A model generated the notes under the pieces. The model did no database searches and was not told the DNA's origin. It worked only from the letters and a program-made list of their open reading frames with translations. Shown here in pieces: positions 1,795 through 60,827 of a stretch of 64,000 bases of DNA (position 1 is its first letter; each line of letters begins with the position of its first letter). The stretch covers positions 14,214 to 78,213 of the forward strand of contig CAZNKB010000004.1 in assembly GCA_964573695.1 (NCBI GenBank), written 5' to 3'. Source of the stretch: an uncultured Gammaproteobacteria bacterium. GTDB lineage: Bacteria > Patescibacteriota > Microgenomatia > UBA10105 > UBA927. The position numbers and the translations under genes were made by a program.

Positions 1795-1813
1795 TATTTT
1801 CTTCTTCTCGCTA

Positions 1814-8282: not shown

Positions 8283-8404
8283 GAGGCTATCTTATCATAG
8301 ATATTTTTTTTCTTTCGTGAAAACTACAAAAGTGGAGTTTTCACGGTCCTGATGCGCTTTGTGCTATTGAACCCTATTATTTTTCCCTCTACAATGATTT
8401 ATGT

Positions 8405-9700: not shown

Positions 9701-9706
9701 CCATAT

Positions 9707-10360: not shown

Positions 10361-10362
10361 TC

Positions 10363-12294: not shown

Positions 12295-12299
12295 AACGT

Positions 12300-15490: not shown

Positions 15491-16591
15491 TGTCACTCGC
15501 ACCGGCATGATGATATGAAGATAAGAATCGTCTTTCGCGGGCTTGAACAAACCGGAGTTAAGAGATCCTGTCATTTCAAAAATAAATTCTTCTTCCTGAT
15601 AATTAGAAAGAAAATCAAGTAGGAACCGACTATTAAACGCGATTTCACCCCCGTCACCGTCTATTTTTGCTTGTAGCTCAATCGAGTTTTTTCCCACTTG
15701 TGCGGCGTTTGCGGAAACCACAATTTTTTGTTTATCAAGGTTTAGCCTAACAATGTTTGCGTTGTCCCTGGCAAAAATCGCGGCAGACCGAACAGCCCGC
15801 AGCAGCCCTTCTTTTTCGATCAGCGCCCTGGTTGTGAATGTTTTTGGGATAATCCGTTCAAAGTTTGGATATTCTCCTTCAAGCAACCTGGTAAGAAGCG
15901 TGGTTTCCCCCACAACGAATCCCACCTGGTTGTCTCCTGCTGGACCCACACGAATATCCTCGCTTGTTTTTTCTTCCCCCGACAACTTCACAACCTCAGC
16001 AAGGGCTTTGGCTGGAATAATCGCCTGAGAAAGATTTTTTGCTGAAAACGCCATTCTGTGAAGCGATAGTCGGTATCCGTCGGTTGCAACAAAAAGCGTT
16101 TTCTCCCCTTCATCAATGACTTTCACGCCTGTAAGCATCGGTCTCCCTTCATCTGTCGCGGCCGCAAACAAAACATTAGAGAGCGTCGAGATGAGCGCGC
16201 TTTTATTTATGCTCCCCGCGTCTTTTAATGAGAGCTGTGGCACGGGAGGAAATTCTGTCGCGGCTATGGTCGGTAACTCTGCCTCAAAGCCCGCGCTTGA
16301 AACAAACAGCCTCTCTTCCTTAACACACAAGTGGATCGTCTCAGGCGGAAGAGTTGCGACAAATTCGAAAAGCACCCTCGCTGAAACACATATTGCCCCC
16401 TCTTTCTCAACCTTGCCTCCCACCCAAACGGTTTCCGTCGTTTCCATGTTTGTTCCGGTGAGTTCTAACCCGTCTTTTGTAGCTGTAAGTCGAATATTCT
16501 GCAATACAGGAAGCTGCGGCTTCGTTGGTACTATCCGCGTGACGTGAGTAAGGGCTTTCTGAAGGTTTTCCTGTAAAAGCTTTATATTCAT
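15485..16591 (-). CDS. dnaN: DNA polymerase III beta sliding clamp
   Basis: 368 aa. N-terminus MNIKLLQENLQKAL. Three-domain clamp architecture. Located immediately downstream of dnaA. Confidence 0.85.
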   Translation of the reverse strand: MNIKLLQENLQKALTHVTRIVPTKPQLPVLQNIRLTATKDGLELTGTNMETTETVWVGGKVEKEGAICVSARVLFEFVATLPPETIHLCVKEERLFVSSAGFEAELPTIAATEFPPVPQLSLKDAGSINKSALISTLSNVLFAAATDEGRPMLTGVKVIDEGEKTLFVATDGYRLSLHRMAFSAKNLSQAIIPAKALAEVVKLSGEEKTSEDIRVGPAGDNQVGFVVGETTLLTRLLEGEYPNFERIIPKTFTTRALIEKEGLLRAVRSAAIFARDNANIVRLNLDKQKIVVSANAAQVGKNSIELQAKIDGDGGEIAFNSRFLLDFLSNYQEEEFIFEMTGSLNSGLFKPAKDDSYLHIIMPVRVTS

Positions 16592-16771
16592 ATAACTTAA
16601 TAAGCAGTAGTAATAAGAATTAGGCGTGGAAAAGTGTATGTTTTTTTGATTTACGTGTCAACGGCAAGACAAAACCATGAATTTGTTTGTGGATAAGTAA
16701 TGCCAAAAGCGGCAAAAACGGTGGAGAAATAAGTGGATAAAAGAGCTCGGTTTGTGGATAAGTGGAAAACA
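16592..16771. promoter_or_regulatory. dnaA-dnaN intergenic region carrying three consensus DnaA boxes (TTATCCACA on the minus strand). Candidate oriC or DnaA-regulatory module.
   Basis: TGTGGATAA at 16688-16696. AGTGGATAA at 16732-16740. TGTGGATAA at 16753-16761. Confidence 0.6.
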
Positions 16772-18139
16772 TCATAAAGCAGAGGCCCATAACTTTTGTT
16801 TTATCCCCGTTACGGCAGAACGCAGCGACTCATTTGTGGACAGTTCTTGGGTAATTGTCTCGACGCCGTGCATAATAGTCGTGTGGTCGCGCCCACCCAA
16901 GGACCCGCCGATGTCGTCGTACGTGAGTCCGAGCTCTGTCTTGGATAAATACATATACACTTGTCTGGGGCGCGCAATCGGGCGATCTCTTTTCGGGCCC
17001 TTAAGCAGTGTCGGTTTAATGTCGAAATACGTTGCAACCGCCTCCAAAAGCTCCTGTGAAGTAACGCGTTTTGCGGTTTTTGTGGGACCCATTGCCGACG
17101 ATTTTGTGTTAAGAAGGGACGAGACAAGCTCCGGTGTAATCGGTTGCGGCTTGGCGGCAAGCTCAGTGGTTAGTCGTCGCAAAAACCCCTCTATTGCTCT
17201 GGCATCCACAACATTTGCTGCGATAATTTGAGCTACGTCGTTGGGCACTGCAAGGCCCAAGGTCTTGGCTTTAATGTTTACAATTGCGGCTCGGAGTTCA
17301 AAGTCGGGCGGAGAGATGTCAACGATGAGCCCGCCCTCAAATCTGCTTCGGAGACGGTCTTCGAGGCGGGCAATTTCGTGTGGCGGCCGGTCGCTCGTCA
17401 ACAACACCTGTCCTCCTTCCCGTAGCACCGCGTTAAACGTATGGAAAAACTCCTCCTGCGCTGTTTGTTTTCCTGCTATAAATTGGACGTCGTCAACCAT
17501 GAGGAGCTCGGCTCCTCGGTATTTTTGTTTAAACTGGCGAGCTGTTTTTGTTTGGATTGCTTCTATTATCTCGTTTAAGAACTCCTCACCCATGCAATAC
17601 ACAACCCGAAGAGACGGCTTTGCAATCAAAAGGGAGTTGGCTATGGCGTACATAAGGTGGGTCTTTCCTACCCCGACCCCACCATAAAGAAACAGCGGAT
17701 TATAAGCATTTGCAATTGTTTTTGAAACCGCGGTTGCTGCTGCGTATGCCAGTTGATTTGTTGTAGAAACGGCGTAATTGTCAAACGTCAAATCAGGATT
17801 GATGTGTAGCTTACGAGCCCGAGAAACAGTGTTGGATTCCCCTTCGAGTACCTGAGCAAACAACGGGCCGGGGCTTCTTTCCTCTGAGTCTTTTTTGGGC
17901 AATACAAGAAAAACGAGGCTGACATTGTTGCCTGTTTTGTGATCAACAATACTTTTGATGAGGCTATAATATCTTGTCTCTGCGAGCGTGCGCATGATAG
18001 GGCTGGGGAATCCAACAGACGCAACGTCCCCGCTTAGGCTGACAAGCTCTGAGTGAGCAAAATGCGTGTGATAGGTGGCTTTAGAAACCGACAACTCAAT
18101 TTCTGCAAGCACCGATTTCCAGAGTCTGTTTAAGTCCAT
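16772..18139 (-). CDS. dnaA: Chromosomal replication initiator protein DnaA
   Basis: Walker A motif GGVGVGKTHLMYAIAN, followed by VDDVQFIAGKQTAQEEFFHTFN and a C-terminal DNA-binding helix-turn-helix. 455 aa. Confidence 0.9.
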   Translation of the reverse strand: MDLNRLWKSVLAEIELSVSKATYHTHFAHSELVSLSGDVASVGFPSPIMRTLAETRYYSLIKSIVDHKTGNNVSLVFLVLPKKDSEERSPGPLFAQVLEGESNTVSRARKLHINPDLTFDNYAVSTTNQLAYAAATAVSKTIANAYNPLFLYGGVGVGKTHLMYAIANSLLIAKPSLRVVYCMGEEFLNEIIEAIQTKTARQFKQKYRGAELLMVDDVQFIAGKQTAQEEFFHTFNAVLREGGQVLLTSDRPPHEIARLEDRLRSRFEGGLIVDISPPDFELRAAIVNIKAKTLGLAVPNDVAQIIAANVVDARAIEGFLRRLTTELAAKPQPITPELVSSLLNTKSSAMGPTKTAKRVTSQELLEAVATYFDIKPTLLKGPKRDRPIARPRQVYMYLSKTELGLTYDDIGGSLGGRDHTTIMHGVETITQELSTNESLRSAVTGIKQKLWASAL

Positions 18140-28289: not shown

Positions 28290-29978
28290 ATGAAAATTCT
28301 TGGCATATCAGCTTTTTATCATGACAGCGCCGCTGTTTTGTATGTTGACGGAACACTGGTTTCGGCAATAGAGGAAGAGCGGTTTAGCAGAGTAAAGCAC
28401 GATAACGCGTTTCCGTTTAAGGCAATTCAATACTGCTTAAATTCAGTTGGTCTGACGATAGATGATATAGACGCGGTGGCATATTATGAGAAGCCGCTTC
28501 TTAAATTTGAGCGGTTGCTGGAAACATTTGTGGTGACTTACCCGTTTGCGCTCAAGCCGTTTTTGCAGGCCATCCCCGATTGGCTTGGCCAAAAAATAAA
28601 CGTTGAAGACATTATCAAAAACAAAGTCGGTTTTCACAAAAAGATTTATTATGTTCCTCATCATGTAAGTCACGCTGCTGCTGCATATTATTCCTCCCCG
28701 TATAGTTCAGCGGCCATTCTTACCATTGATGGTGTTGGTGAATACCAAACGACAGCGTTATGGAAGGGGGAAAAAGGAAAACTGACCCTTCTCGGGAGTA
28801 TTGATTTTCCACACTCGGCAGGACTTCTCTACTCTACGTTCACCGCGTATTTGGGTTTCAAGGTAAACGAAGATGAATATAAGGTTATGGGATTATCGGC
28901 ATACGGGTCACCGACGTATAAAGAGGATATATATCATCTTATCGACGTCAAGCCGGACGGTAGCTTCCGACTCAACATGGAGTATTTTTCTTACCGCGAA
29001 ACATTCAGGATGTTCAATAATAGATTTATTTCGCTTTTTGGGCCTCCCCGCAAGCCAGGAGAAAAAGTAGAAAAAAGGCATCGCGATATCGCGGCAAGCA
29101 TTCAGGCCGTCATGGAAGAACTCTTGTTTGCAATGCTTACCCACCTTCATGCTCTTACTAAATCCTCACATCTTTGCATGGGTGGCGGGGTAGCGCTCAA
29201 TGCTTTGGCAAACGGAAAGATATATACCAAAACACCATTTAAAAAAGTGCATATATTAGGTGCCGCCGGTGACAGCGGGGCCGCCATTGGGGCGGCGCTG
29301 TATGTCCAGCGGCAGATAGACAAAGGCGGCGGGCAGCAGCAAATTAAAGGACTGTATTTGGGATCGGCATACAGCAACGAGAGTATTGAGGCGGTATTGC
29401 TTTGTTATCCCAAATTAACGTACAGGAAATTTAGTGATGAAAGTGAGCTGCTACGATCCGTTGCAGCGCTGTTGTCCAAGGGAAAAACAGTTGGTTGGTT
29501 TTGGGGGCGTACGGAGTATGGCCCAAGGGCATTGGGTGCGCGCTCGATTCTATCCCGCCCCAGTCCGCGAAGCATGAAGGATGTCATGAATAAAATAAAA
29601 CGGCGGGAAGAGTTTCGTCCGTTTGCCGGATCAATCCTTCAGGATCATGTGCACGAATATTTTCATACTCCGGAAAAAAAGTATTACTCCCCCTTTATGA
29701 ACGTCTGTCTGGTGGTAAGGGAGAAGAAGCGCAAAGAATTGGCTGCGATTGTGCATGCGGATAACACATGCAGAATCCAAACAGTCAGCCCTGATAACGG
29801 CAGATACTACCGATTGATCAAAGAATTCTACAGGCAAACCGGCACACCGTGCGTTCTCAACACGAGCTTTAACGTCATGGGTGAACCGATTGTGGAGCAT
29901 CCGCGGCAGGCAATTGAGGATTTTCTCAATTCAAAAATGGACGCTCTTGTTATCGGTGATTTATTCATTCATAAATAG
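28290..29978 (+). CDS. Carbamoyltransferase of the NodU/CmcH/NovN family (O-carbamoylation of a sugar or hydroxyl acceptor)
   Basis: N-terminus MKILGISAFYHDSAAVLYVDGTLVSAIEEERFSRVKHD, an ASKHA/YrdC-like carbamoyltransferase N-terminal domain. 562 aa, which is the typical size. Confidence 0.8.
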   Translation: MKILGISAFYHDSAAVLYVDGTLVSAIEEERFSRVKHDNAFPFKAIQYCLNSVGLTIDDIDAVAYYEKPLLKFERLLETFVVTYPFALKPFLQAIPDWLGQKINVEDIIKNKVGFHKKIYYVPHHVSHAAAAYYSSPYSSAAILTIDGVGEYQTTALWKGEKGKLTLLGSIDFPHSAGLLYSTFTAYLGFKVNEDEYKVMGLSAYGSPTYKEDIYHLIDVKPDGSFRLNMEYFSYRETFRMFNNRFISLFGPPRKPGEKVEKRHRDIAASIQAVMEELLFAMLTHLHALTKSSHLCMGGGVALNALANGKIYTKTPFKKVHILGAAGDSGAAIGAALYVQRQIDKGGGQQQIKGLYLGSAYSNESIEAVLLCYPKLTYRKFSDESELLRSVAALLSKGKTVGWFWGRTEYGPRALGARSILSRPSPRSMKDVMNKIKRREEFRPFAGSILQDHVHEYFHTPEKKYYSPFMNVCLVVREKKRKELAAIVHADNTCRIQTVSPDNGRYYRLIKEFYRQTGTPCVLNTSFNVMGEPIVEHPRQAIEDFLNSKMDALVIGDLFIHK

Positions 29979-31093: not shown

Positions 31094-32881
31094 ATGAAGA
31101 CATTCAGGGTATTTGATCTTGCTTTTGTTTCCGGTTCTATATCGGAGGTCGTACAGCGTATCGCCCAATGGATTGATACGGATAAGCACGCGTACATATG
31201 TGTCACCGGAGCACATGGTGTCGTTGAGGCGAGCGGAAAACCACTCGTCAAAACGGCTCATAAAGAAGCGACTTTGATCGTGCCAGACGGCATGCCATTG
31301 GTTTGGATTGGGAGATTGTTGGGGGCCAAAAATACGCAGAGGATATATGGTCCTGACCTGTTTCTTGCTTTGTGTCGCCGGGCGCAAGAAGAAAAATGGA
31401 GTATATTTCTTTACGGATCATCGCCACACGTTCTGAAGAAACTTACGTCTGAGTTAATCCGTAGATTTCCGTTGTTACGGGTGGCGGGGCGTCTCGCTCC
31501 CCCATTCCGGCTATTAAGCAAAGCCGAAGACGAAAAATTTATCGACAGCATTAATGCAACGAAAGCGCAGATTGTGTTTGTTGGTCTGAGTACCCCCAAA
31601 CAAGAAATATGGATGTATGAGCACCGGTCGAGGCTTAACGTAAATGTGTTGATTGGGGTGGGTGCGGCATTTGATTTTGTCGCGCGTACGAAAAAACAGG
31701 CTCCGCGTTTTATACAACAGTCAGGTTTTGAGTGGTTGTTCAGGTTTTTGCAGGAGCCACGAAGGCTTTGGCGTCGGGCATTGGTTGTAAACGCGCGGTT
31801 CTTGATATTGACAGCGAAAGAAACATTATCTTTGGTGGCACACGTGCGCCGCAGAAACGTTTTGCGTACTATCCTGGTCAGCTTGTTACTGACGGGGCTG
31901 CTATTGGGGCTCGCAGAGCTGGCCTCACGAATGATGACTGATTTTGGATTTATTTCGTATTACCACCCGATAAAAATTCAGACTCTTATAGAGCCAAGCG
32001 CCCAAACAGAAGATTGGCGCCTGACTCATATATACCGTGATGAACAGTTTATGCCGGACTCGCTGCTTTTTTGGAAACCGAAGCCAGGAGCATGGCGGTA
32101 TAACAAAGACGGATTTGTCGGTAGTGTAAATCGGTCTGTGTTGCATGAAGCAAAAGAGCGCGGCGGGTGTAGTGTTTTGGCTATTGGAGATTCAAACACT
32201 CAGGGAATCGCAGAGTTTTCCTGGCCAGAGAGTTTGAATGAGCTTTTTGTAACAAACGGACTATCCACCAGAGTGGCCAACGCGGGAGTAGCAGGATACA
32301 GTTCATTTCAAGGTGAGTATTTATATAATCAATTGGCAGCGAGTCTACAGCCAACGGTAGTGGTTGTCAGTTTTGGCTGGAATGATATGACACCAGATAT
32401 GGGCATGCCGGACCGGAATTTTTCCCGTTTCTCCTTGCCAGCAAATAGCCTGCTAAGCAGATCTAAGTTATACTTGATAATCCAAAATATTTTTTCCCCG
32501 AAGGTAGAGAATGACGGAGAGTATCATCCCCGAGTGAGCGTATCTGAATACAAAGAAAACCTCAATGCTATTATTACTACTGCTCAACAACACAAGAGCA
32601 CGGTGCTGCTTCTAACAAGGCCGTATAATCCCGAGCATATGGTGTGGAATTCAGTGAGCCCGCTCCTCAAAGGGGGTTGGAGAAAATACGTCTATGATTA
32701 TAACGGTGTAGTCCGAGATGTTGCCCACAAGCGGTCAGTTCAACTCATAGACATGGAGGCGAAATTCAGTACAGATGCAGCCTATTTTCTTGATGATTCG
32801 CATTTCACACTGGAGGCAAGCAGGATTGCTGCAATGTTTATATATGAGCAGATGCGTCGTAATGACTTAGTATGTAAGTAA
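31094..32881 (+). CDS. Fusion protein: an N-terminal WecB/TagA/CpsF (GT26) glycosyltransferase, a transmembrane helix, and a C-terminal SGNH/GDSL hydrolase domain
   Basis: The N-terminus has the GT26-like segment IVPDGMPLVWIGRLLGAK...IFLYGSSPHV. The transmembrane helix is ILVSLLLTGLLLGLAELA. The C-terminal domain begins CSVLAIGDSNTQGI (the GDS block). Confidence 0.6.
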   Translation: MKTFRVFDLAFVSGSISEVVQRIAQWIDTDKHAYICVTGAHGVVEASGKPLVKTAHKEATLIVPDGMPLVWIGRLLGAKNTQRIYGPDLFLALCRRAQEEKWSIFLYGSSPHVLKKLTSELIRRFPLLRVAGRLAPPFRLLSKAEDEKFIDSINATKAQIVFVGLSTPKQEIWMYEHRSRLNVNVLIGVGAAFDFVARTKKQAPRFIQQSGFEWLFRFLQEPRRLWRRALVVNARFLILTAKETLSLVAHVRRRNVLRTILVSLLLTGLLLGLAELASRMMTDFGFISYYHPIKIQTLIEPSAQTEDWRLTHIYRDEQFMPDSLLFWKPKPGAWRYNKDGFVGSVNRSVLHEAKERGGCSVLAIGDSNTQGIAEFSWPESLNELFVTNGLSTRVANAGVAGYSSFQGEYLYNQLAASLQPTVVVVSFGWNDMTPDMGMPDRNFSRFSLPANSLLSRSKLYLIIQNIFSPKVENDGEYHPRVSVSEYKENLNAIITTAQQHKSTVLLLTRPYNPEHMVWNSVSPLLKGGWRKYVYDYNGVVRDVAHKRSVQLIDMEAKFSTDAAYFLDDSHFTLEASRIAAMFIYEQMRRNDLVCK

Positions 32882-51456: not shown

Positions 51457-53640
51457 ATGAGTTTTGAAAGTAACAAGGCACGGTTTAATATCAAGAACGC
51501 TGTCAAGCACGGCGTGATTACCGGTCTTATGGGTTGGGCGGCAATCGAAGGGGTACAGGCGTATCAGCCCAACGCACATCAGGTTTTTGCGGAGCGAGGC
51601 GCTCATACCCAGTTTTACTCCGGTGATGTTGGTTTCGGAACGCATACTGACCGCCCGAACACTATTGATGTGACATATCGCGGAAGATCGGTCGCCGCTA
51701 TCCCCTCCAGTTCATTTGGTCAACCCCAACAAAGCGCAGAGCGCGTCGTCAGACGTGGTGACGGGAGGGCGCATAGGACATCCGACACGAGAAGAACTCA
51801 AGAAACAGCTCAAAACAGTGCCCCCTCGTATGTTCGATTAGAATCCATGCCAAGTTTGGCGGAGGACGTAGTAAATCAAACGACATTGAAAGCGACTCCT
51901 GTTCAGGCACAAATTCCGCCCTGGGTTCCCTTGGTGGTCATGGCGCCGGAAATGATCTATGGCGTTGGAACAACGTTAAACAAAACGCTTATTCATAGCA
52001 GCGCATTACAAAGGCGACTCAATGTGTTCGAAATGAGTTCGTTAGAAGCACGGCTGATTGCAGCTTGCGCGGTACCACTAACGACGATTGCCTCCCCCAC
52101 AGAAAGCCCGGCTCCTATAGCCGTAACGGTGGCTCCTGAAGTAACCGGAACACCGCTCGTAAACGAAGTGTTAACAAGTACTCCGGCACCACGAATAGAA
52201 ACCCTTGTGGCGATAGACGGCTCATATCCTACAAAGGTGTCTCTCGTGGAGTCCCCGAAGGTCTATAGTTACGGAGGACCAGAGGGGCGGGAAAATATGG
52301 ACGAGGTTACGCGCGCGATGTTTGACCGCTATATCGCGGAACTCGCCCGCGAAGGCTTGATCCAAGGATCCAATCCTGAAGCATTGTATCTCGACTTTGA
52401 CAAGAAATTTGATTTTAAGATGTACGTAACTGATCAAATGCTGACCCGGATTATCCAGTATAAATCCGGCGGCGCTTTTTTGGTGCCGGATAACATGGTA
52501 GGTCAGGTGTATCGGGAGCTACAACTTTCGTACAACGATCTGTTTCAGGGAGGGGCTCCTATTGACGTAGGTACAGACAACTTCGGCTTTCGGCAGTTTC
52601 AGGCTGACCGAGTTGGCGGTGTTGGCGCATGGCCTGTGCTTGTGAATGTGGACGAGCAAAGCATACCCGTTTCATGGCTCAATATGGATCGTGGAGGCGC
52701 GGTGACGCCCCTAGAAAGTTCGGTAGCTGTCGTGACTCCTGGCGTAACCCAAGTTCCGCAAGGGGTCGAATCACCCCAGCCTGCTGTCACAGAGCCCGGA
52801 GCGACTCGGGTCGTCACGGAAAACGGGCATGACTATGTCTATACCTACACGAAGCTGGGAGAAACCGAGACTGGCGAAGAACTGTGGGGATACGTGCGGG
52901 AGGCCGGCACGATCATATTATTCGACGGGCCTATAAGAAATTATTTACCATTCCAAATTTTGGTTTCCCAAAATGTCCAAAACGAACGAAATTTCGTTTC
53001 TGTTAATTACACAGATCAAACAGATATTAATAGTCCGAACCCTTGGTTAACCCGCACGCTTAGTCCAGAACTACAAAAGAGGTACTTTGCGGAAGACCCA
53101 AGGAAAGGCACGATGACAGACATGGAAGGATCAAGAGTATTACAAATGGAAATGCTTGGATTAGGAGAAGGTGACCATAAACAAGCTTATTTGGATATCA
53201 TTGTCGCAAACGGTACGCCGGAAGGCGAAGTGAAACGGGTAAAACTGAGCGAAACCACAGGGATTATTCTGACAATCATGACGCCTGAAGATATCGCCAA
53301 GCTCGGAGGTGAGAATGTTATTGAGTTACATGCGCAGGACGGAGACCGTAATTACACGTATTATGTACAGGTATATGACGTGGATGAAAAAGGCAACGAA
53401 CTAGCTAGAGTAGCCTTTAAAGATCCGCTGAACGAAATTCCGGAAGCAGTGTTGCGGAAGGTATTGTTTTCCATACCCGGGAATATGATAGATCACAAAG
53501 ATCAGCGTGAGCAAGGGTTCACCAACGTAGCTCAGATATTTGCGCAATACTCCGCAAAAACAAACGAAACAACGGGTAAGCCGGAAGTTGAGATAGAACT
53601 TTTACCAGATATACCCGTACTTACCACCCCAACTCCGTAG
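51457..53640 (+). CDS. Large hypothetical protein (727 aa). It may be extracytoplasmic, and no catalytic motif was recognised.
   Basis: Long ORF preceded by a TTGACA-N18-TACTAT promoter-like element (51407-51436). Confidence 0.5.
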   Translation: MSFESNKARFNIKNAVKHGVITGLMGWAAIEGVQAYQPNAHQVFAERGAHTQFYSGDVGFGTHTDRPNTIDVTYRGRSVAAIPSSSFGQPQQSAERVVRRGDGRAHRTSDTRRTQETAQNSAPSYVRLESMPSLAEDVVNQTTLKATPVQAQIPPWVPLVVMAPEMIYGVGTTLNKTLIHSSALQRRLNVFEMSSLEARLIAACAVPLTTIASPTESPAPIAVTVAPEVTGTPLVNEVLTSTPAPRIETLVAIDGSYPTKVSLVESPKVYSYGGPEGRENMDEVTRAMFDRYIAELAREGLIQGSNPEALYLDFDKKFDFKMYVTDQMLTRIIQYKSGGAFLVPDNMVGQVYRELQLSYNDLFQGGAPIDVGTDNFGFRQFQADRVGGVGAWPVLVNVDEQSIPVSWLNMDRGGAVTPLESSVAVVTPGVTQVPQGVESPQPAVTEPGATRVVTENGHDYVYTYTKLGETETGEELWGYVREAGTIILFDGPIRNYLPFQILVSQNVQNERNFVSVNYTDQTDINSPNPWLTRTLSPELQKRYFAEDPRKGTMTDMEGSRVLQMEMLGLGEGDHKQAYLDIIVANGTPEGEVKRVKLSETTGIILTIMTPEDIAKLGGENVIELHAQDGDRNYTYYVQVYDVDEKGNELARVAFKDPLNEIPEAVLRKVLFSIPGNMIDHKDQREQGFTNVAQIFAQYSAKTNETTGKPEVEIELLPDIPVLTTPTP

Positions 53641-53694
53641 GTGCTTGTAATTTCCCTTTCACTCCCCTATCCTAACATTAGGGCTATTTATTCT

Positions 53695-54339
53695 ATGAGG
53701 CGCGTGATTATTGTTGTCATCGTTATCATTGTGGTGATCCCTCTTGTGTTTGTTGCCTATAGAAATTGGGATGCTTTACAGGAGGCCGCTTTTAAAGCGA
53801 AATTTCTAACGCGACGAGCTTCCGTACCTAGTCAGAAATATTCTGCCTCAACCAAAACTCCGGAGGCAAGTATCGCGCTCGTCGACACGGCGTTTTTGGA
53901 CTACATTACAGAAACACTGCACGTATATGACGTCGACGCCATTGCCGACCCTGAGCGATATATGGATAAGAAGACAAGCGTTGTTCGTCACACCGTTTCA
54001 CGGCTTACGTTTGAGCTCGTTCCTACGCTTGATCGATATATCGTAGCTCTTGGCGGAAGTGCTGATTTTGCCGGACGCGGCATGTACGCAGTCGAGGGTG
54101 ACACACTTGTAGTCCGGGTATCGCTTAATGAGGCAGAGCTTATAAAAAGCAATGGTCCGGTAAAATTTAATATGGAGGATATGTATCTCGATACTGCACT
54201 TCAAACGCTTCTTTATGCGACTGTTAAACCCGGAGCATCCATACGTCCTGACGAGCTTGCCAAAGTACAAAAAGCAATAAAAGACAATATTACTAGCGGG
54301 ATATTTGTTCGTCCGGTGAAGATAGAAACACAAAAATAA
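53695..54339 (+). CDS. Hypothetical protein with an N-terminal transmembrane anchor
   Basis: The internal start gives MRRVIIVVIVIIVVIPLVFVAY. The ORF-track start at 53641 abuts the upstream stop and is equally possible. Confidence 0.4.
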   Translation: MRRVIIVVIVIIVVIPLVFVAYRNWDALQEAAFKAKFLTRRASVPSQKYSASTKTPEASIALVDTAFLDYITETLHVYDVDAIADPERYMDKKTSVVRHTVSRLTFELVPTLDRYIVALGGSADFAGRGMYAVEGDTLVVRVSLNEAELIKSNGPVKFNMEDMYLDTALQTLLYATVKPGASIRPDELAKVQKAIKDNITSGIFVRPVKIETQK

Positions 54340-54341
54340 CT

Positions 54342-55859
54342 ATGCCACGATTTACCCTTAGGCTTGCTCTCTGTGTCTTCGCGGTGCTGCTTGGAGTTAT
54401 CCTCACCAGGCCGCAGCCGGTGTATGCCAATAGTGTGTGTACGGATAATCCCGTTGCATGCGTCATGATGTGGATTCCCTGGACGCACACGATCGAGTCT
54501 ACGCAGGGTTGCACTACTGATGCGTATGGCATTAGAACATGTCCTACCATACAGGTAACAGACATGGTCGAACGGTGTACTATTCCACAAGCCGGCGGCG
54601 GATCATGCCAGTGTTGTTATGAGACCGGGTGTTATCTGGATTGCGGTAATATTCCTGGTACCGGTGGCGGTGGCGGTGGTAACACAGATCCTCCGCCTGA
54701 TCCTGGCGTGACCCTGACCCCAACTCCCACTCCTGCTCCAGGAACGATCAATATCGTCGCACGTGAGGTGACTAACGACACAACCTGTACTGCTATATCC
54801 AATTCTATAGACCCCGTGGTAGGGACGATATTTGGCTTTACTCCGTCGTCGGCTTCCAGCCCAAGTCCACAGACGCAATTGGACAATACTCCTGTTTCTT
54901 TTACGAATCTACCTATCGGATCATATACGATTACCTATACTCCGCCTGCACCAGAATGGATACTGGCTAACGCGTGTATATATAGAAATGGCGTACTTAC
55001 AGCATACGGACAAAACGCAGACCTTTTTAGCGGAAACACGTTGGAGTGGAGAATAGGGTTTACGAGAGGATCTGCCTGGGTGCAGACTTCGGGAGGAGAC
55101 GTGTATGCAGCGTCCAGCGTCCGCTCGTATATCCCCAATGTCAGCCCGCGAGTATTTAACGCCAATGGTTCAAATGGGTATCCGGGAGTCGTGACGTATG
55201 GCACAAGTTATGATTTTGATCCAGACTGGACACTGACGGGTAGTACATACGTGTCATCGAGTAATTGGATAGTACAGGAAACACAAGCGCCTGTTGATTA
55301 TTATGACTTTTTTTATCGCCGATACGGATCCCCCACTATTCCGACGACAAATTCGGCTTTTGGAAACCTCCTTGCGGTCACGAAGCCTGCAACTAGCGTG
55401 ACGCCCTACTACGTGCTCGGGGATATGACGACAAGCGGAAACTGGATCGTGGGAAGTAATGAATCTATCGTTATTCTTGTGGACGGAAATCTGACCATTG
55501 GTGGAAATATCAATATTACCGGAAACGGGTTCATCGCGTTTATCGTCAATGGGGATATCACCATTTCGGATGCCATAGGGACGACCGTTTCGTCCGTGGC
55601 GCCGGTTGTTGAGGGTGTATACATCACCAACACTACAGGAACATTTGCGACCGGCGCGTCCTTAGCGGCAAGCACCGCAAAATTTGTGGGCAACGGTATG
55701 TTTGTGGCGGGCAACTTTCTGCTCGAGCGCGACCTTGAGATTTCGGGGGGCAACACAACGTATCCTGCAGCGCTTTTTACTTTTGATCCACAACTACTCC
55801 TCACGATGCCCGACTCAATGAAAGACTTGCCAGTCACATGGCAGGAAGTCGCACCGTGA
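54342..55859 (+). CDS. Secreted protein with a signal peptide, a Cys-rich N-terminal region, a Gly/Pro linker and a C-terminal domain with beta-helix-like repeats
   Basis: Signal peptide MPRFTLRLALCVFAVLLGVILT. Linker PGTGGGGGGNTDPPPDPGVTLTPTPTPAPG. Repeat-like strands GNWIVGSNESIVILVDGNLTIGGNINITGNGFIAFIVNGDITISD. Confidence 0.5.
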   Translation: MPRFTLRLALCVFAVLLGVILTRPQPVYANSVCTDNPVACVMMWIPWTHTIESTQGCTTDAYGIRTCPTIQVTDMVERCTIPQAGGGSCQCCYETGCYLDCGNIPGTGGGGGGNTDPPPDPGVTLTPTPTPAPGTINIVAREVTNDTTCTAISNSIDPVVGTIFGFTPSSASSPSPQTQLDNTPVSFTNLPIGSYTITYTPPAPEWILANACIYRNGVLTAYGQNADLFSGNTLEWRIGFTRGSAWVQTSGGDVYAASSVRSYIPNVSPRVFNANGSNGYPGVVTYGTSYDFDPDWTLTGSTYVSSSNWIVQETQAPVDYYDFFYRRYGSPTIPTTNSAFGNLLAVTKPATSVTPYYVLGDMTTSGNWIVGSNESIVILVDGNLTIGGNINITGNGFIAFIVNGDITISDAIGTTVSSVAPVVEGVYITNTTGTFATGASLAASTAKFVGNGMFVAGNFLLERDLEISGGNTTYPAALFTFDPQLLLTMPDSMKDLPVTWQEVAP

Positions 55860-55903
55860 TCCTTTATACGAGTTAAATCCCTAATTTTGGTACAATAAGG
55901 GTC

Positions 55904-57313
55904 ATGACGTTTGAACAACTCCGGCTGAAACATCCCAGGCTTACGTATACCAGATACCGCGTCACCAGAGGAGATTCTTCGCTTGTTATTTCGTACGAAT
56001 TTTTGCTTGAGCCCGATATCAGTCTGCAGTCAGTGGTCACCGTTCCCTTTTCCGGGGTTGTGACGGATACAATATTGGAACCGTTCGTTTTCAATCTCGG
56101 GCTTATCGAAGCGATAAGTTACTGGAAGCTCGCGTGTCCCAGGGAATTTGTGGTCGAAGCCGGTCATCTGACCTCGGAACAAGTCAGGTTCTGGTACGAC
56201 CTATTTATTCACGGACTTGGTGAGTTTTATTATCAAAATCAGATAGATTTCACGATGCCTGATTTTTTGCATATCCGATCATCTGATGCGATTGGGCAGC
56301 ATAACGTATGGGATCAGTCGTTGGGCCAACGGGCGGTGAATAACTCGTCTTTCCCTACGACTCATCAAGCGGCTGATTTGGTTTTGGTAGGTGGCGGCAA
56401 GGATTCAGCTGTAACGTTAGGAATGATGAAACAGGGCGATAGAACGCTCCAAACTATTGTTTTGAATCCCACCAAAGCGGCCAGTGATGTCATAAGGAGT
56501 TCTGGTTTCCCCGCCCCCCTGATAGTGAAGCGTACGTTGGATCCAAAGCTTCTTGACTTAAATGGTGCGGGATATCTTAACGGGCATACTCCTTTTTCTG
56601 CCTACATAGCTTTTTTGGGTGTGTTGGTGTCGTCACTCACGGGTAGTGAAAACGTCATCGTCTCAAACGAAAGAAGCGCCAATGAGGGGAACGTGTCCTA
56701 CCGTGGCATGGAGGTAAATCACCAGTATTCCAAAAGTTTCCGGTTTGAAACAATGTTTCGACAGTATTGTATAGACACATTTGAACAGTGCGGTTCATAT
56801 TTCAGTCTGCTCCGTCCTCTCAATGATATGCAGATAGCGGCAATCTTTGCGACGTATCCTCAGTTTTTTACCACATTTAGGAGCTGTAATAAGGGAGCGA
56901 AGACCGGTGTTTGGTGCGGGGCCTGCGCAAAATGTGCGTTTACGTATCTTACCCTGTCCCCCTATATGTCCCACGAACAGATGCGAATTAGTTTTGGAGC
57001 GGATTTATTTGCCAGTACTGCAATTATCGAACATATCCGAGCGCTGGTCGGGCTCGTTCCGGTAAAGCCGTTTGAATGCGTCGGCACCCGCGATGAGGCA
57101 AAGCTCGCTGTTATATTGGTAGTGGAAAAATATCTCGAAGAACATAGGGAGGTCCCTGAAGGGTTACTCAAGATAAAAAGCGATTTGTTTCTGAGTCGCC
57201 AGGATATTGTGGAATTACGGCGCCTCGTGCTGGACACTTGGGGTGACACATATAATTTACCGCCGGAGTACGTGTCGCTTCTTCGTGCAGTCTGGCAGAC
57301 TATCAGTAGATAG
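55904..57313 (+). CDS. PP-loop ATP-pyrophosphatase-superfamily protein with a C-terminal Cys cluster. Possible MurL-like glycopeptidyl-glutamate epimerase (inference).
   Basis: LVLVGGGKDSAVTLGMM (SGGxDS PP-loop) at about residue 165. The C-terminus has CNKGAKTGVWCGACAKC. The gene is immediately upstream of murD. Confidence 0.5.
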   Translation: MTFEQLRLKHPRLTYTRYRVTRGDSSLVISYEFLLEPDISLQSVVTVPFSGVVTDTILEPFVFNLGLIEAISYWKLACPREFVVEAGHLTSEQVRFWYDLFIHGLGEFYYQNQIDFTMPDFLHIRSSDAIGQHNVWDQSLGQRAVNNSSFPTTHQAADLVLVGGGKDSAVTLGMMKQGDRTLQTIVLNPTKAASDVIRSSGFPAPLIVKRTLDPKLLDLNGAGYLNGHTPFSAYIAFLGVLVSSLTGSENVIVSNERSANEGNVSYRGMEVNHQYSKSFRFETMFRQYCIDTFEQCGSYFSLLRPLNDMQIAAIFATYPQFFTTFRSCNKGAKTGVWCGACAKCAFTYLTLSPYMSHEQMRISFGADLFASTAIIEHIRALVGLVPVKPFECVGTRDEAKLAVILVVEKYLEEHREVPEGLLKIKSDLFLSRQDIVELRRLVLDTWGDTYNLPPEYVSLLRAVWQTISR

Positions 57314-57321
57314 ATAAACAT

Positions 57322-58710
57322 ATGCAAAGCAATGAAATTCACGGAAATTCCGTGTTGATTTTGGGATATGGCCGGGAGGGAAAAAGCATCCATGCCTGGC
57401 TACAAAAGTATCATCCGTCTCTTCGAGTGGGTATTGCTGATAAACACGCAAAGACGGAGCTTATGTCGGGGGAAACATACAAAGGAGCTACCGTCTATAA
57501 CGGTGAAGGATATCTTTTTCATTTGTCTGAGTACGATACGATTATCAGAAGCCCCGGTATTTCTCCGTATACATCTGAAATTTCAGATTTTTTGAAAAAA
57601 GGCGGAGTCATGACGTCAGCGACCAACATATTCTTCTCTCTCGTTCCTGGTATCACAGTCGGAGTGACCGGAACGAAAGGAAAAAGTACGACGTCGAGTT
57701 TGATAGCGCATATTCTTTCGTCTCATTTTGATGATGTGCGTCTGGCTGGCAATATTGGTGTTCCCATGCTTGATAGTTTGGCGGCTGCTACGGAGCGAAC
57801 GATTTTTGTGTTGGAGTTGTCTAGTCACCAGTTATATGACTGTCGATATAGTCCGCATATTGGGGTTGTGCTGGGAATCGTATCTGAGCATTTGGATTAT
57901 TATCCTGACTTGATGAGTTACGCCAAGGCAAAATCGAATATCGCCAACAGACAAACCGTCAAAGATTTTCTGATTTATAACCCGATGCATACCGTGGTGC
58001 GTGAGTTGGTGCGATTGAGCCCGGCTACACACGTACTTTATCAGGCGCAAGAGGAAGAAAAAATTCATACATTTCTTCGAAATGGTGAGATCATGGTGAA
58101 GGACAATGGCGAAGCGATACCTGTTATCAAAATGGCAGACGTGCCACTACTGGGGAACGAGGAGAATACTTTGGCGGCAGTAACCGTTGCTCATCTTATG
58201 CGTGTTCCCGTAAAGACTATAGCATCGGCGATTGCTCCGTTTAAGTCTCTCCCTCACCGGTTGGAATTTGTCGGGGAGTACAGAAAAATCCGATTTTATA
58301 ATGACTCGTTAGCCACTATTCCTCAGGCAACAATCCATGCATTAGAGGCATTAGGATCGGATGTGACAACACTTATTGTCGGAGGATATGACCGCGGGAT
58401 CGATTATAGAGAGCTAGGTACATATTTGCGCGGTCACCCAGTGCAAACACTTATCTTATTGCCTGATACCGGCGAGAAAATTTGGGAAGCAATTGGCATG
58501 CCTATTACGGAGACAAAGGCGTCCTCTATTATGAAACCATATCGGGTGGATTCTATGGAAGAAGCGTTGAAGGTAAGCTTTGCGCGTACGCAACAAGGGA
58601 AAATATGCCTTCTCTCCCCTGGGAGCGCGAGTTATAATATGTTCCGTGATTATGCTGATCGGGGTGAGCAGTTCGCTGCATGGGTGAGAAAGATTGGGTC
58701 AGGCGTATAA
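57322..58710 (+). CDS. murD: UDP-N-acetylmuramoyl-L-alanine--glutamate ligase (MurD, or the MurD2 L-Glu-adding variant)
   Basis: Rossmann motif ILGYGREGKS. Mur-ligase P-loop VGVTGTKGKSTTSSLIAHIL, followed by VLELSSHQL. 462 aa. Confidence 0.8.
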   Translation: MQSNEIHGNSVLILGYGREGKSIHAWLQKYHPSLRVGIADKHAKTELMSGETYKGATVYNGEGYLFHLSEYDTIIRSPGISPYTSEISDFLKKGGVMTSATNIFFSLVPGITVGVTGTKGKSTTSSLIAHILSSHFDDVRLAGNIGVPMLDSLAAATERTIFVLELSSHQLYDCRYSPHIGVVLGIVSEHLDYYPDLMSYAKAKSNIANRQTVKDFLIYNPMHTVVRELVRLSPATHVLYQAQEEEKIHTFLRNGEIMVKDNGEAIPVIKMADVPLLGNEENTLAAVTVAHLMRVPVKTIASAIAPFKSLPHRLEFVGEYRKIRFYNDSLATIPQATIHALEALGSDVTTLIVGGYDRGIDYRELGTYLRGHPVQTLILLPDTGEKIWEAIGMPITETKASSIMKPYRVDSMEEALKVSFARTQQGKICLLSPGSASYNMFRDYADRGEQFAAWVRKIGSGV

Positions 58711-58779
58711 ATACGGCATAACACGGGAATTTCTCCTGCCTCCCTTGCGCGAAAAATTGGAATTGAGTATACTTAGGGC

Positions 58780-58917
58780 ATGCCGAAACGAACATATCAA
58801 CCGAAAAAACTGAAAAGAAAACGTGTCCACGGATTCCGAGAGCGCATGAAAAGCGTCAAGGGGCGTTTGGTACTCAAGCGCCGTAGGGCAACAGGACGGA
58901 AAAAATTAACCGTCTAA
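58780..58917 (+). CDS. rpmH: 50S ribosomal protein L34. It is absent from the ORF track because it is only 45 aa long.
   Basis: Translation [45 protein letters not shown] matches the L34 consensus, with a stop at 58915-58917. Confidence 0.85.
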
Positions 58918-58924
58918 ACAGCGC

Positions 58925-59317
58925 ATGTTTTCTCCTTCCAATAGACTTCTCTCCAAGGATATTCCCTTTGTTATGAAAACAGGTTTTCATATACGCGCAG
59001 TGGGCATAGAAGTTGTCTATCTTATGCGTCAGGCCGACCCGCGTTTTGTCCCGCAAAACGGGACTCCACTCTCAGAGCCTCGTTTCGCCATAATTGTTTC
59101 TTCGAAAGTAGATAAACGGGCAACTCGACGGAATCGGATGAAACGGCTTGTACGTGAGGCGTTGCAGGATTTACTGCCTTTCATAACGAAGGGGTTTTGC
59201 GCAGTTTTTGTCGTGCGTTCTCGATTGCCAGATACAGAAGAGGAAGTGCGTGAATTGATACACAACACGCTCAACACACTCAACACACATTGGATATTGA
59301 AGGGATCAACGACATGA
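58925..59317 (+). CDS. rnpA: Ribonuclease P protein component
   Basis: [18 protein letters not shown] (RNR-box). 130 aa. Canonical position after rpmH. Confidence 0.8.
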
Positions 59318-59559
59318 AGCACCTAATACTGCGTGCCATACGGTTCTATCAGAGATATCTTTCGCCAGATACCGGCGTGTTTCGAGCGCTTTGGCTCGTG
59401 GATAGCGCGTGCCGTTTTTACCCGACGTGCAGTGAGTATACGTATCAAGCGGTCGATCACTATGGTATAATGCGAGGACTGTATATGGGATTGAGGCGAA
59501 TTCTCCGTTGTCATCCCTGGTCAAAAGGTGGAGTTGATCCTGTGCCGAGCGAATCATAA
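59314..59559 (+). CDS. yidD: Membrane protein insertion efficiency factor YidD
   Basis: YQRYLSP...[15 protein letters not shown]...[12 protein letters not shown]. Start taken at MKHLIL, which gives an ATGA overlap with rnpA. Confidence 0.8.
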
Positions 59560-59565
59560 CGACGT

Positions 59566-60369
59566 ATGACAAACCCAACACTTTGGAACCAATTATTTGT
59601 ATGGCCGATTGTCAATCTGCTAGTCGGATTTTACAAATTATTTGAGTGGCTCAGCGTGCCGGGGGCATTGGGATTTGCCGTTATCGCTCTTACGGTAGTT
59701 ATCCGCTTGCTTCTTTATCCTCTTATGGCGGCTCAAATGAAGTCCGCAAAAAAAATGCAGAAGCTAAAGCCTCATCTTGATGCGCTCAACATAAAACACA
59801 AAGATGACAAAAAAGCGCTGCAACAAGCGCAGCTGGATTTATATAAAACGCATGGAGTAAATCCCGCGGCAGGGTGTCTCCCCCTTCTTATTCAGATGCC
59901 GGTACTCATCGCTCTTTACAACGTGTTTTATCAAGTGCTTCAAAACGGTAATGCGGCGAAATTGGTTTCGGACCTTAACGCTATTTTATATATTCCAGTA
60001 CTTCATCTAACGAGTCTTGATTTGTCATTTTTCGGTACGAATCTTGGTGTGAAACCAAGCTCATGGCAGACGGACGGTTGGTGGTTGCTTCTCATTCCCG
60101 TCATTACTGCGGGATTACAGTGGTACCAAAGCAAGCTTATGTTGCCGCAGGCCGGTTTGTCTGATAATGGGCAGAAAGCGCAAGTCACCAAGACTGATGA
60201 GAAGAAGCCTGAAGATACCGCAGCGGAAATGCAGAAGCAAATGGCCATGATTACGCCTGTTATGTTCGGTATGTTTGCCTATCAATTTCCATTGGGACTT
60301 GCTCTCTACTGGAACGTTTTCGGGCTTTTTGGTATCATGCAGCAACTCCGAATAAACGCGGAGAAATAA
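59566..60369 (+). CDS. yidC: YidC/Oxa1 membrane protein insertase (short Gram-positive/CPR-type form)
   Basis: IRLLLYPLMAAQMKSAKKMQKLKPHLDAL...GVNPAAGCLPLLIQMPVLIALY. 267 aa. Confidence 0.85.
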   Translation: MTNPTLWNQLFVWPIVNLLVGFYKLFEWLSVPGALGFAVIALTVVIRLLLYPLMAAQMKSAKKMQKLKPHLDALNIKHKDDKKALQQAQLDLYKTHGVNPAAGCLPLLIQMPVLIALYNVFYQVLQNGNAAKLVSDLNAILYIPVLHLTSLDLSFFGTNLGVKPSSWQTDGWWLLLIPVITAGLQWYQSKLMLPQAGLSDNGQKAQVTKTDEKKPEDTAAEMQKQMAMITPVMFGMFAYQFPLGLALYWNVFGLFGIMQQLRINAEK

Positions 60370-60377
60370 TAATTACT

Positions 60378-60827
60378 ATGGAAGATACACAAACAGTGGC
60401 GCATATCGTAGAAGAGGTCTTGGGTAAACTCGAAATAGTAGGCTCTGTTTCGGTTTCCACAGACGAGACGGGAGCATTTCGTGTGGGTATTGAAACGGAA
60501 GAAACGGGATTACTCATCGGACACCACGGAAAAACTCTCGAAAGTCTCCAGCTTATTCTGGGTATTATAGTTTCCAAATCGCTTGGTCGGTGGGTAAAAG
60601 CATATGTGAATGTCGGCGATTATCGTGAGAAACGAGAAGAGACTCTTATGCATATGGCTCAGCGTGCGGCAGATCGCGCGCTCGCACTTGGTAGGCCGGT
60701 AGAATTAGCAAGGTTGACTCCCGCTGAAAGAAGAATTATTCATCTTACGCTTTCCGGTGACGATCGCATCGAGACCGAGTCGATTGGTGAGGGCGACGAT
60801 CGCACTCTACTCGTAAAACCCAAATAA
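60378..60827 (+). CDS. jag: Jag/KhpB-like protein with KH and R3H RNA-binding domains
   Basis: C-terminal R3H segment AERRIIHLTLSGDDRIETESIGEGDDRTLLVKP. Canonical position after yidC. Confidence 0.7.
   Translation: MEDTQTVAHIVEEVLGKLEIVGSVSVSTDETGAFRVGIETEETGLLIGHHGKTLESLQLILGIIVSKSLGRWVKAYVNVGDYREKREETLMHMAQRAADRALALGRPVELARLTPAERRIIHLTLSGDDRIETESIGEGDDRTLLVKPK

Follow-up and report, generated by a model that had tools for sequence, protein, structure and literature searches.

The locus

The window considered here is a stretch of 64,000 nucleotides (nt) of contig CAZNKB010000004.1 (assembly GCA_964573695.1), which comes from an uncultured member of the Candidate Phyla Radiation (CPR), or Patescibacteria. 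It carries two neighbouring genes, a predicted murL and a predicted MurD2-type ligase gene (Table 1), which point to the MurD2/MurL route to the D-glutamate of peptidoglycan. This route was first shown in Xanthomonas oryzae in 2017 (reviews PMC5808125, PMC8788868). MurL requires ATP and Mg2+, forms AMP and works in the L-to-D direction only; it is said to lack "known conserved domains", and adenylation of the alpha-carboxylate of Glu has been hypothesised (PMC8788868, PMC5808125).

Both reading frames lie on the forward strand where the preliminary description, which was made from the letters alone, had placed them. The TAG of murL and the ATG of the ligase gene are 8 nt apart, and the start codon of murL is backed by an alignment of the N-termini of 32 homologues. 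The ligase gene was also said to be isolated beside rpmH, away from the division and cell wall (dcw) cluster, and this is how it stands: with E. coli proteins as tblastn queries, the 64-kb window holds no second Mur ligase and no further homologue of MraY, FtsW, MurG, MurC, MurE, MurF, Ddl, FtsA or FtsZ. Beyond the last gene of the rpmH block, jag/KhpB (KH-R3H), come a Wzy_C protein and then a polysaccharide flippase.

Table 1 Features of the predicted murL-murD2 locus, numbered by position in the window (aa, amino acids; invariance refers to 82 aligned MurL sequences)
Feature	Positions	Strand	Description
Possible extended -10 promoter element, TGgTAcAAT	55888-55896	+	Ends 7 nt before the murL ATG; read off the sequence
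murL	55904-57313	+	469 aa; layout MurL_N, QueC-like PP-loop domain, 4-Cys motif, helical C-terminal region
VGGGKDS, aa 162-168	56387-56407	+	PP-loop-like ATP pyrophosphatase motif; between strand 155-161 and helix 166-175
NGHTPFS, aa 226-232	56579-56599	+	Candidate substrate/catalytic residues including His228; N226, G227, H228 and P230 invariant
NHQYSKS, aa 272-278	56717-56737	+	Candidate catalytic His273 and Lys277; H273, Q274 and K277 invariant
4-Cys motif, C328-x9-C338-x2-C341-x2-C344	56885-56935	+	Predicted zinc site, QueC equivalent; all four Cys invariant
KPFECVGT, aa 388-395	57065-57088	+	Cys392, candidate acid/base for C-alpha proton exchange; P389 and C392 invariant
MurD2-type ligase gene	57322-58710	+	462 aa; predicted UDP-MurNAc-L-Ala:L-glutamate ligase
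VSEHLDYY	57880-57903	+	Glu189, aligned with D182 of E. coli MurD and E197 of X. oryzae MurD2; L-Glu determinant
NDSLATIP	58300-58323	+	Leu330, by alignment in place of E. coli K319
GGYDRGIDY	58381-58407	+	Arg358, aligned with K348 of E. coli MurD and R358 of X. oryzae MurD2; second L-Glu determinant
rpmH	58780-58917		First gene of the block 3' of the ligase
rpmH-rnpA-yidD-yidC-jag/KhpB block	58780-60827	+	Directly 3' of the ligase; conserved context, outside the pathway; Pfam Ribosomal_L34, Ribonuclease_P, 60KD_IMP, KH/R3H

Identity of the 469-aa protein

The sole NCBIfam match of the 469-aa protein is NF041275, MurL_Xanthmoales (E 8.7e-66, 222 bits, profile positions 54-395 of 447), a model named UDP-N-acetyl-alpha-D-muramoyl-L-alanyl-L-glutamate epimerase. 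The RefSeq-annotated murL-murD pair of Xanthomonas sacchari, which comes from a replicon mis-filed among plasmids, was used as the reference, and the window protein is 32% identical to its MurL over 339 aa (BLASTP, E 1e-46). A search of 5.8 billion proteins returned 6,054 relatives, and the Pfam families MurL_epimerase_C (PF26298) and MurL_N (PF26299) were present on all 120 of the closest homologues, including one that is 97% identical and P0002, which is 89% identical. When the window protein itself was searched against a Pfam set without PF26298 and PF26299, only a sub-threshold match to DUF6395 was obtained. The databases can be said to recognise the MurL family already, because these Pfam families exist and because the Joint Genome Institute gives P0088 the name "epimerase"; the NCBI name for the CPR homologues is hypothetical protein. 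The likeness to MurL that had been proposed for the PP-loop protein is therefore carried by the NF041275 match, the X. sacchari comparison and the two Pfam families on the 89%-identical homologue.

Conservation within the family gives a finer view of the protein. An alignment of 82 MurL sequences, made up of the window protein, its X. sacchari counterpart and the homologues from 80 genomes of many phyla, has 29 invariant columns, and the window protein satisfies all of them. Two PP-loop residues, G165 and D167, never vary; G164, K166 and S168 show conservation of at least 95%, and so do K388, E391 and G394 of KPFECVGT. GGGKDS, NGH.P, NHQ.SK, SCN...WCG.C.KC and KPFECVG are common to the window protein and that of X. 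sacchari. Two details of the preliminary description can be corrected here. The PP-loop string LVGGGKDSAV is present at aa 160-169, although a Gly stands in this protein (GGGKDS) where the classical SGGxDS begins with Ser. Likewise, the CxxCxxC motif exists as CGACAKC at aa 338-344, at about 70% of the length of the protein and not at its extreme C-terminus.

Predicted fold and resemblance to QueC

The AlphaFold2 model of MurL, built from a 33-sequence alignment, scores well (predicted local distance difference test 91.3, predicted template modelling score 0.90) and places VGGGKDS between a strand and a helix, in the classical PP-loop position. A Foldseek search of the PDB with this model returned QatC (9y02_B, E 2e-4, probability 1.0, 454 columns aligned), Bacillus subtilis QueC (3bl5, E 6e-4, probability 1.0, target template modelling score 0.61) and Cap9 (probability 0.92), followed by TtuA, MnmA, ThiI and argininosuccinate synthetase. 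All of these belong to the PP-loop ATP-pyrophosphatase group. At the sequence level the PDB holds no relative of MurL, even at E 10.

The hallmarks of QueC are an SGGxDS phosphate-binding motif and a zinc motif, C(x)8CxxCxxC, and the enzyme takes the carboxylate of 7-carboxy-7-deazaguanine to an amide and then to a nitrile in two ATP-dependent steps, with ammonia (PMC13329287). MurL resembles QueC, QatC and Cap9 in its predicted PP-loop fold, its xGGxDS loop and its C-x(8/9)-C-x2-C-x2-C motif, the spacer in MurL being one residue longer. As in QueC, a carboxylate substrate would be used with ATP, the acyl-adenylate of MurL being the proposed mechanism (PMC8788868). The two differ in that MurL has no PF06508 match and has an extra N-terminal MurL_N and a helical C-terminal region, and in that its substrate would be UDP-muramyl dipeptide and its outcome epimerisation. 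On the predicted fold, then, MurL is an enzyme that would act like a QueC-type carboxylate-activating enzyme yet stands outside the QueC family (PF06508). The fold search in this way bears out the earlier suggestion that a PP-loop adenylating enzyme would fit the chemistry of the predicted activity. A 2026 survey of the QueC family makes no mention of MurL (PMC13329287).

Two other identities were considered for the 469-aa protein and rejected. It has a QueC-like fold but is not QueC or TilS, and a defence-type QatC/Cap9 reading was dropped since PADLOC gave no match.

Specificity residues of the ligase

The ligase has the Pfam domains Mur_ligase_M, Mur_ligase_C and MurD-like_N, and it retains every one of the MurD catalytic residues, which in E. 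coli numbering are K115, N138, E157, H183, K198 and T321. It passes the cutoff of the murD model TIGR01087 with 333.9 bits. This model does not discriminate between the two types of ligase, because X. sacchari MurD2 passes it too (298 bits). Residues that set the choice of substrate have been located by mutation. X. oryzae MurD2 has E197 and R358 where the E. coli enzyme has D182 and K348, and changing both (E197D/R358K) turns MurD2 into a D-Glu ligase; in E. coli MurD, K319T is the one mutation that leads to acceptance of L-Glu (PMC8788868).

These positions were compared in an alignment of E. coli MurD, X. sacchari MurD2, 14 canonical MurDs (7 with annotated flanks, 6 of these with a dcw-type neighbour) and 66 MurDs adjacent to MurL. 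At E. coli position 182 the canonical MurDs (n=15) have Asp (11), Ala (3) or Asn (1), at position 319 Lys (14) or Ile (1), and at position 348 Lys (12) or, in Bacilli, Arg (3). X. sacchari MurD2 has Glu, Ile and Arg at the three positions. The MurL-adjacent MurDs (n=66) have Glu in 63 and Asp in 3 at position 182, Leu (31), Ile (34) or Gln (1) at position 319, and Arg in all 66 at position 348. With E189, L330 and R358, the window ligase shows the E/L/R counterpart of the E/I/R of Xanthomonas, and Glu182 occurs in none of the 15 canonical enzymes. On these alignments, the combination of E182, a residue other than K319, and R348 is a signature that separates the putative MurD2-type ligases from canonical MurD in the sampled set; loss of K319 as part of it was derived here, and the literature does not use it as a family definition. 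A neighbour-joining tree of 417 columns, which is a plain distance method applied to a set where only one MurD2 belongs to a characterised genus, likewise splits the 15 canonical MurDs from a group of the window ligase, X. sacchari MurD2 and the 66 adjacent MurDs, with 158 of 200 bootstrap replicates (79%). The expectation that this MurD would stand apart from canonical enzymes is thus upheld by both residues and tree.

Compared with canonical E. coli MurD (b0088), the window protein is the same kind of three-domain Mur ligase with the same catalytic residues and a TIGR01087 score above the cutoff (334 bits). It differs in carrying E, L and R where E. coli has D182, K319 and K348, in having murL directly 5' and in lying outside the mraY-ftsW slot. 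With the MurD2 of X. oryzae and X. sacchari it shares the Glu and Arg determinants, a hydrophobic side chain where E. coli has K319, an aromatic one at position 416, the catalytic residues and its side of the tree; it differs in having Ala and not Pro at position 414 and in a low overall identity (see below), and it is known here from its sequence.

Two MurDs of the comparison deserve a separate remark. The murD of Subdoligranulum variabile (L097) encodes Asn, Ile and Lys at positions 182, 319 and 348, between the canonical and MurD2 signatures, and some bootstrap trees place this otherwise canonical-looking protein on the border between the two groups. The X. sacchari MurD2 gene (L084, 7136-8572) lies on a 508-kb "plasmid" record that looks chromosomal, and its RefSeq name is D-glutamate ligase. 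MurD2-type ligases appear to be systematically mis-named by standard pipelines, because even this one is annotated as a D-glutamate ligase.

Linkage, fusions and conserved context

A scan of species-representative genomes gave at least 600 pattern matches, at least 594 of which are MurL relatives, and the best 80 loci were compared. In 71 of these 80, a gene for a MurD homologue lies 3' of murL in the same orientation, usually within 200 nt. The motifs described above cannot be put down to chance, because they are invariant across 82 family members and the pair is kept in 71 of 80 related loci. Three of the nine loci without a MurD 3' of murL end within 540 nt past the gene. Five others (L009, L011, L012, L046, L073) have at least 3.5 kb of 3' sequence and no MurD in this flank; in L046, mraY is found directly 5' of murL. 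In these five, the partner ligase may lie elsewhere or MurL may act alone.

The neighbourhood of the pair is informative in the CPR. Directly 5' of murL, mraY is found in 19 loci, whose labels are Paceibacterota, Nealsonbacteria, Saccharibacteria or unclassified (labels of metagenome-assembled genomes, MAGs, are given throughout as deposited, and some are probably wrong). The order is mraY-murL-murD-ftsW-murG in most of the 19, with no second murD in flanks of up to 6 kb. The CPR pair can be tied to peptidoglycan synthesis because it fills the housekeeping murD slot between mraY and ftsW. The arrangement in the window is also conserved, as the order murL-murD-rpmH-rnpA-yidD-yidC-jag-wzy-flippase is kept in L003, L004, L005, L007 and L101; L003 is a Patescibacteria MAG with a 59% identical MurL, and L004 and L005 are Gottesmanbacteria. 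As in Xanthomonas, murL (469 aa, compared with 451 aa) lies directly 5' of, and co-oriented with, a gene for a MurD-type ligase, and the two MurL proteins have the same Pfam families. The window locus differs in its place beside rpmH-rnpA-yidC, where Xanthomonas has a lysC/lysA-type gene 5' of the pair, and in its origin from CPR/Patescibacteria, not from a proteobacterium or actinobacterium, with its function read from sequence.

Natural fusions of the two proteins are common. Single in-frame MurL-MurD proteins without an internal stop are encoded at L016 (5962-8490), L029 (5962-8271) and L082 (5914-8703). Among the best 149 representatives of clusters at 50% identity, 26 are fusions, 24 in the order MurL-MurD and 2 reversed (P0158, P0268), and the E-[L/I]-R signature is present in 22 of the 26. 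Fusion lengths range from about 740 to 1250 aa (L016, L029, L082; P0130-P0268), and P0234, at 1247 aa, has a further C-terminal extension.

A MurL-like gene without a murD beside it was seen on Pseudonocardia plasmids (pPaSha1 of Pseudonocardia alni, L085, 4929-6329; also H2 and H4), where its neighbour encodes WD40 repeats. The protein scores 323 bits with NF041275 and keeps nearly all the invariant residues. It may be a MurL paralogue with another substrate.

Interpretation and alternatives

On the evidence of sequence, linkage and predicted fold, the gene pair is very probably a murL-murD2 operon encoding a MurL/MurD2 system. The pair is a further member of a known system, in a phylum for which the accessible literature holds no report of it. 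In the route that we infer, in which the enzyme activities, the catalytic base, the binding of zinc and the absence of a glutamate racemase are all predictions, MurD2 would use ATP and the acyl-phosphate chemistry of Mur ligases to add L-glutamate, not D-glutamate, to UDP-N-acetylmuramoyl-L-alanine (UDP-MurNAc-L-Ala). The QueC-like PP-loop domain of MurL would then adenylate the alpha-carboxylate of the terminal Glu with ATP, pyrophosphate leaving at this step and AMP later. Adenylation would acidify the C-alpha proton, which could be exchanged by an invariant residue (Cys392, His228, His273 and Lys277 are the candidates), and hydrolysis would free the D-epimer. Epimerisation would be one-way because ATP is used and adenylation is L-specific. 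The organism would then build its wall without free D-glutamate.

Several observations weigh against the assignment to this system. Both activities have been shown only for the enzymes of X. oryzae, Micromonospora and Salinispora, none of which is from the CPR (PMC8788868). The 222 bits of the window MurL are far under the NF041275 equivalog cutoff of 700 bits. This shortfall reflects lineage and not function, because the cutoff admits Xanthomonadales only: X. sacchari MurL scores 836 bits, homologues of other phyla beside MurD2-type ligases score 237-273, and the possible Pseudonocardia paralogue scores 323. The sequence similarity of MurL to QueC is not significant, since hhalign (E 0.009, probability 4.5%) aligned the Cys motif alone, matching the four Cys weakly with C188, C197, C200 and C203 of E. 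coli QueC, and the link between the two therefore rests on the predicted fold. For the ligase, identity is 29% to Xanthomonas MurD2 and 28% to E. coli MurD. Because overall identity does not discriminate, the MurD2 call rests on the specificity residues, the tree and the linkage. Among these residues, Arg348 also occurs in D-Glu-specific MurDs of Bacilli, so that it is Glu182 and the loss of Lys319 combined on which the call depends. Finally, the window ligase has Ala and Tyr at positions 414 and 416, where X. oryzae MurD2 has Pro and Phe (P433 and F435; A414 and L416 in E. coli). The P433A and F435L mutants are still L-Glu-specific (PMC8788868), and these positions are for that reason not decisive; among the MurL-adjacent MurDs, Pro is found at position 414 in 17 of 66 and Phe or Tyr at position 416 in 62 of 66.

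A genuine MurL/MurD2 pair could still be redundant, in a genome that also encodes a glutamate racemase or D-amino-acid aminotransferase and perhaps a canonical dcw murD. This is the strongest of the alternatives, and we regard it as possible though rather doubtful. The visible sequence is 64 kb of the genome, and in the lineage of the window the pair lies beside rpmH and outside the dcw cluster; in most of the 19 CPR loci with mraY, by contrast, the pair itself occupies the mraY-ftsW slot with no second murD nearby. Within the window, E. coli MurI gave only chance-level tblastn matches (E at least 1.3), and Pfam scans of essentially all open reading frames of at least 150 aa found neither Asp_Glu_race nor Aminotran_4. 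More widely, the window and about 0.8 Mb of related loci taken together showed neither murI nor an Aminotran_4 gene (MurI tblastn at E up to 1e-5, 80 loci). CPR genomes are small and rarely retain redundant pathways. On the other side, the MurI of one CPR bacterium, Candidatus Saccharimonas aalborgensis, is experimentally active according to Penalver et al. 2024 as cited in PMC11974145, and the Bacteroidota- and Clostridia-labelled loci have no mraY, ftsW or murG in their flanks, cultured Bacteroidales having a canonical dcw murD. The published MurD2/MurL organisms all have no D-Glu-forming genes (PMC8788868), which also speaks against redundancy.

The CPR proteins could, alternatively, have drifted to a different muropeptide reaction, either amidation of the Glu alpha-carboxylate to iso-glutamine, by analogy with QueC, or a pathway in which position 2 of the stem keeps L-Glu or is taken by some other residue. 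To our knowledge, the composition of CPR peptidoglycan has hardly been characterised, and the closest annotated MurL from a characterised genus is only 32% identical; the precedent is that QueC performs an ATP-dependent conversion of carboxylate to amide with ammonia (PMC13329287). Drift of this kind seems improbable, given that every residue invariant in the 82 members, Xanthomonas included, is retained, that the partner ligase has the L-Glu signature of Xanthomonas MurD2 and that both activities were also demonstrated for far-removed orthologues in actinobacteria (Micromonospora, Salinispora; PMC8788868). A QueC/QatC-family enzyme with another job, such as 7-deazaguanine/tRNA modification or phage defence, beside an ordinary D-glutamate ligase is the least tenable reading and largely refuted, since the QatC and QueC structural matches, the QueC-type GGxDS and 4-Cys motifs and the TIGR01087 murD equivalog score (which Xanthomonas MurD2 also reaches) are outweighed by the lack of a Pfam QueC, PADLOC or PDB sequence match, the strong and specific match to MurL models, the MurD2 residues of the ligase, the linkage to murD, which spans many phyla (71 of 80 loci), and the fusion proteins.

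Distribution and significance of the MurL/MurD2 system

In a 2021 review, the MurD2/MurL route was placed in Xanthomonadales, three alphaproteobacterial genera and four genera of rare actinomycetes, and was described as confined to a fairly small number of genera (PMC8788868). The MurL family as found here comprises 2,477 clusters at 50% identity with E up to 1e-3, and 1,143 with E up to 1e-30. By their titles, about 22 of the top 80 loci are from the CPR, 21 from Bacteroidota and 7 from Clostridia, with others labelled Acidobacteria, Rokubacteria, Methylomirabilia, Bdellovibrionota, Binatia and Actinomycetota. Among the matches listed, the genomes closest to the window MurL are MAGs of Patescibacteria, Candidatus Gottesmanbacteria, Curtissbacteria and Microgenomates (45-61% identity), so that the window can be assigned to a Gottesmanbacteria-like CPR bacterium to which no species representative is close. 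Taken together, the data suggest a much wider spread of the MurD2/MurL system than the literature has recorded. In our searches, with incomplete coverage of the literature, no report on MurL/MurD2 in the CPR, on the structure or fold of MurL, or on absence of murI in the CPR was found beyond the two reviews of the Dairi group.

A broader proposal can be made, for and against which we see the balance as about even. In it, MurD2/MurL would be a major and possibly the main source of D-Glu for a large part of the Patescibacteria, and also for many uncultured lineages such as Bacteroidales, Clostridia and Acidobacteria; murL would lie within the dcw cluster, between mraY and murD, in many CPR genomes and be fused to murD in many genomes; and MurL would be a QueC-like, zinc-binding PP-loop adenylating enzyme in which the invariant Cys392 (or His228, His273 or Lys277) exchanges the C-alpha proton. 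For annotation, the murD of the window should be read as a probable L-glutamate ligase and the upstream "hypothetical protein" as a probable epimerase, both of which standard pipelines miss. If the system is functional in these hosts, many ultra-small CPR bacteria would make their wall without free D-glutamate. With MurL relatives in at least 594 genomes of many phyla, including MAGs of gut Bacteroidales and Clostridia, the narrow-spectrum argument would weaken on the same condition. The reviews describe the mechanism of MurL as unclear, and the QueC-like fold also offers a concrete framework in which it can be tested.

Transcription signals and other features of the window

The -10-like element ahead of murL (Table 1) was not called by a consensus promoter scan because it has no -35 element; a TATACT element at about 58765-58775 stands at the same distance ahead of the rpmH ATG. 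Judged from their position, the two elements suggest that the mRNA leaders are very short or absent. Promoter and terminator scans of the window gave counts no higher than expected from shuffled sequence. A perfect palindrome, CACGGAAATTCCGTG (57340-57354), lies 18 nt into murD and was scored as terminator-like on both strands; the number of such terminator-like sites equals the shuffle expectation. The 64-kb window holds no tRNAs or Rfam families.

Directly 5' of murL, at 51457-55859, proteins of 727, 232 and 505 aa are encoded in series, for which Pfam gives a weak DUF7305 match only. The 505-aa protein has a Gly/Pro/Thr-rich linker, and the 727- and 505-aa proteins have counterparts with 51-56% identity in the closest MAG (L003).

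Farther away, two large open reading frames without a Pfam match, of 531 aa (+) and 1211 aa (-), occupy 199-5449. They are followed by a type-IV-secretion/conjugation-like set at 6099-14483, made up of a coupling ATPase resembling VirD4/TraG (6099-8282, -), a member of the PrgI family (8405-9700), a P-loop ATPase of the VirB4/TraG kind (10363-12294) and an M23-peptidase protein of 727 aa (12300-14483). A replication origin is probably located near dnaN and dnaA (15485-18139, -), where the cumulative GC skew has its minimum at about 16 kb. The rpmH-rnpA-yidD-yidC-jag block usually adjoins dnaA. Here it lies about 40 kb from dnaA, with a large glycan-synthesis cluster in between.

This very large cluster (18248-51263) is of an envelope-polysaccharide or teichoic-acid-like type. 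It contains many glycosyltransferases of families GT2 and GT4, a carbamoyltransferase (28290-29978), a WecG/TagA-GDSL lipase fusion (31094-32881), a DegT aminotransferase, two proteins like ornithine/diaminopimelate decarboxylases, one like serine hydroxymethyltransferase, one like CDP-glycerol glycerophosphotransferase, and ABC-2 exporters. Wzy_C proteins, which are O-antigen-ligase-like, are encoded within it at 18248 and 24513, and a third is found outside it at 60857.

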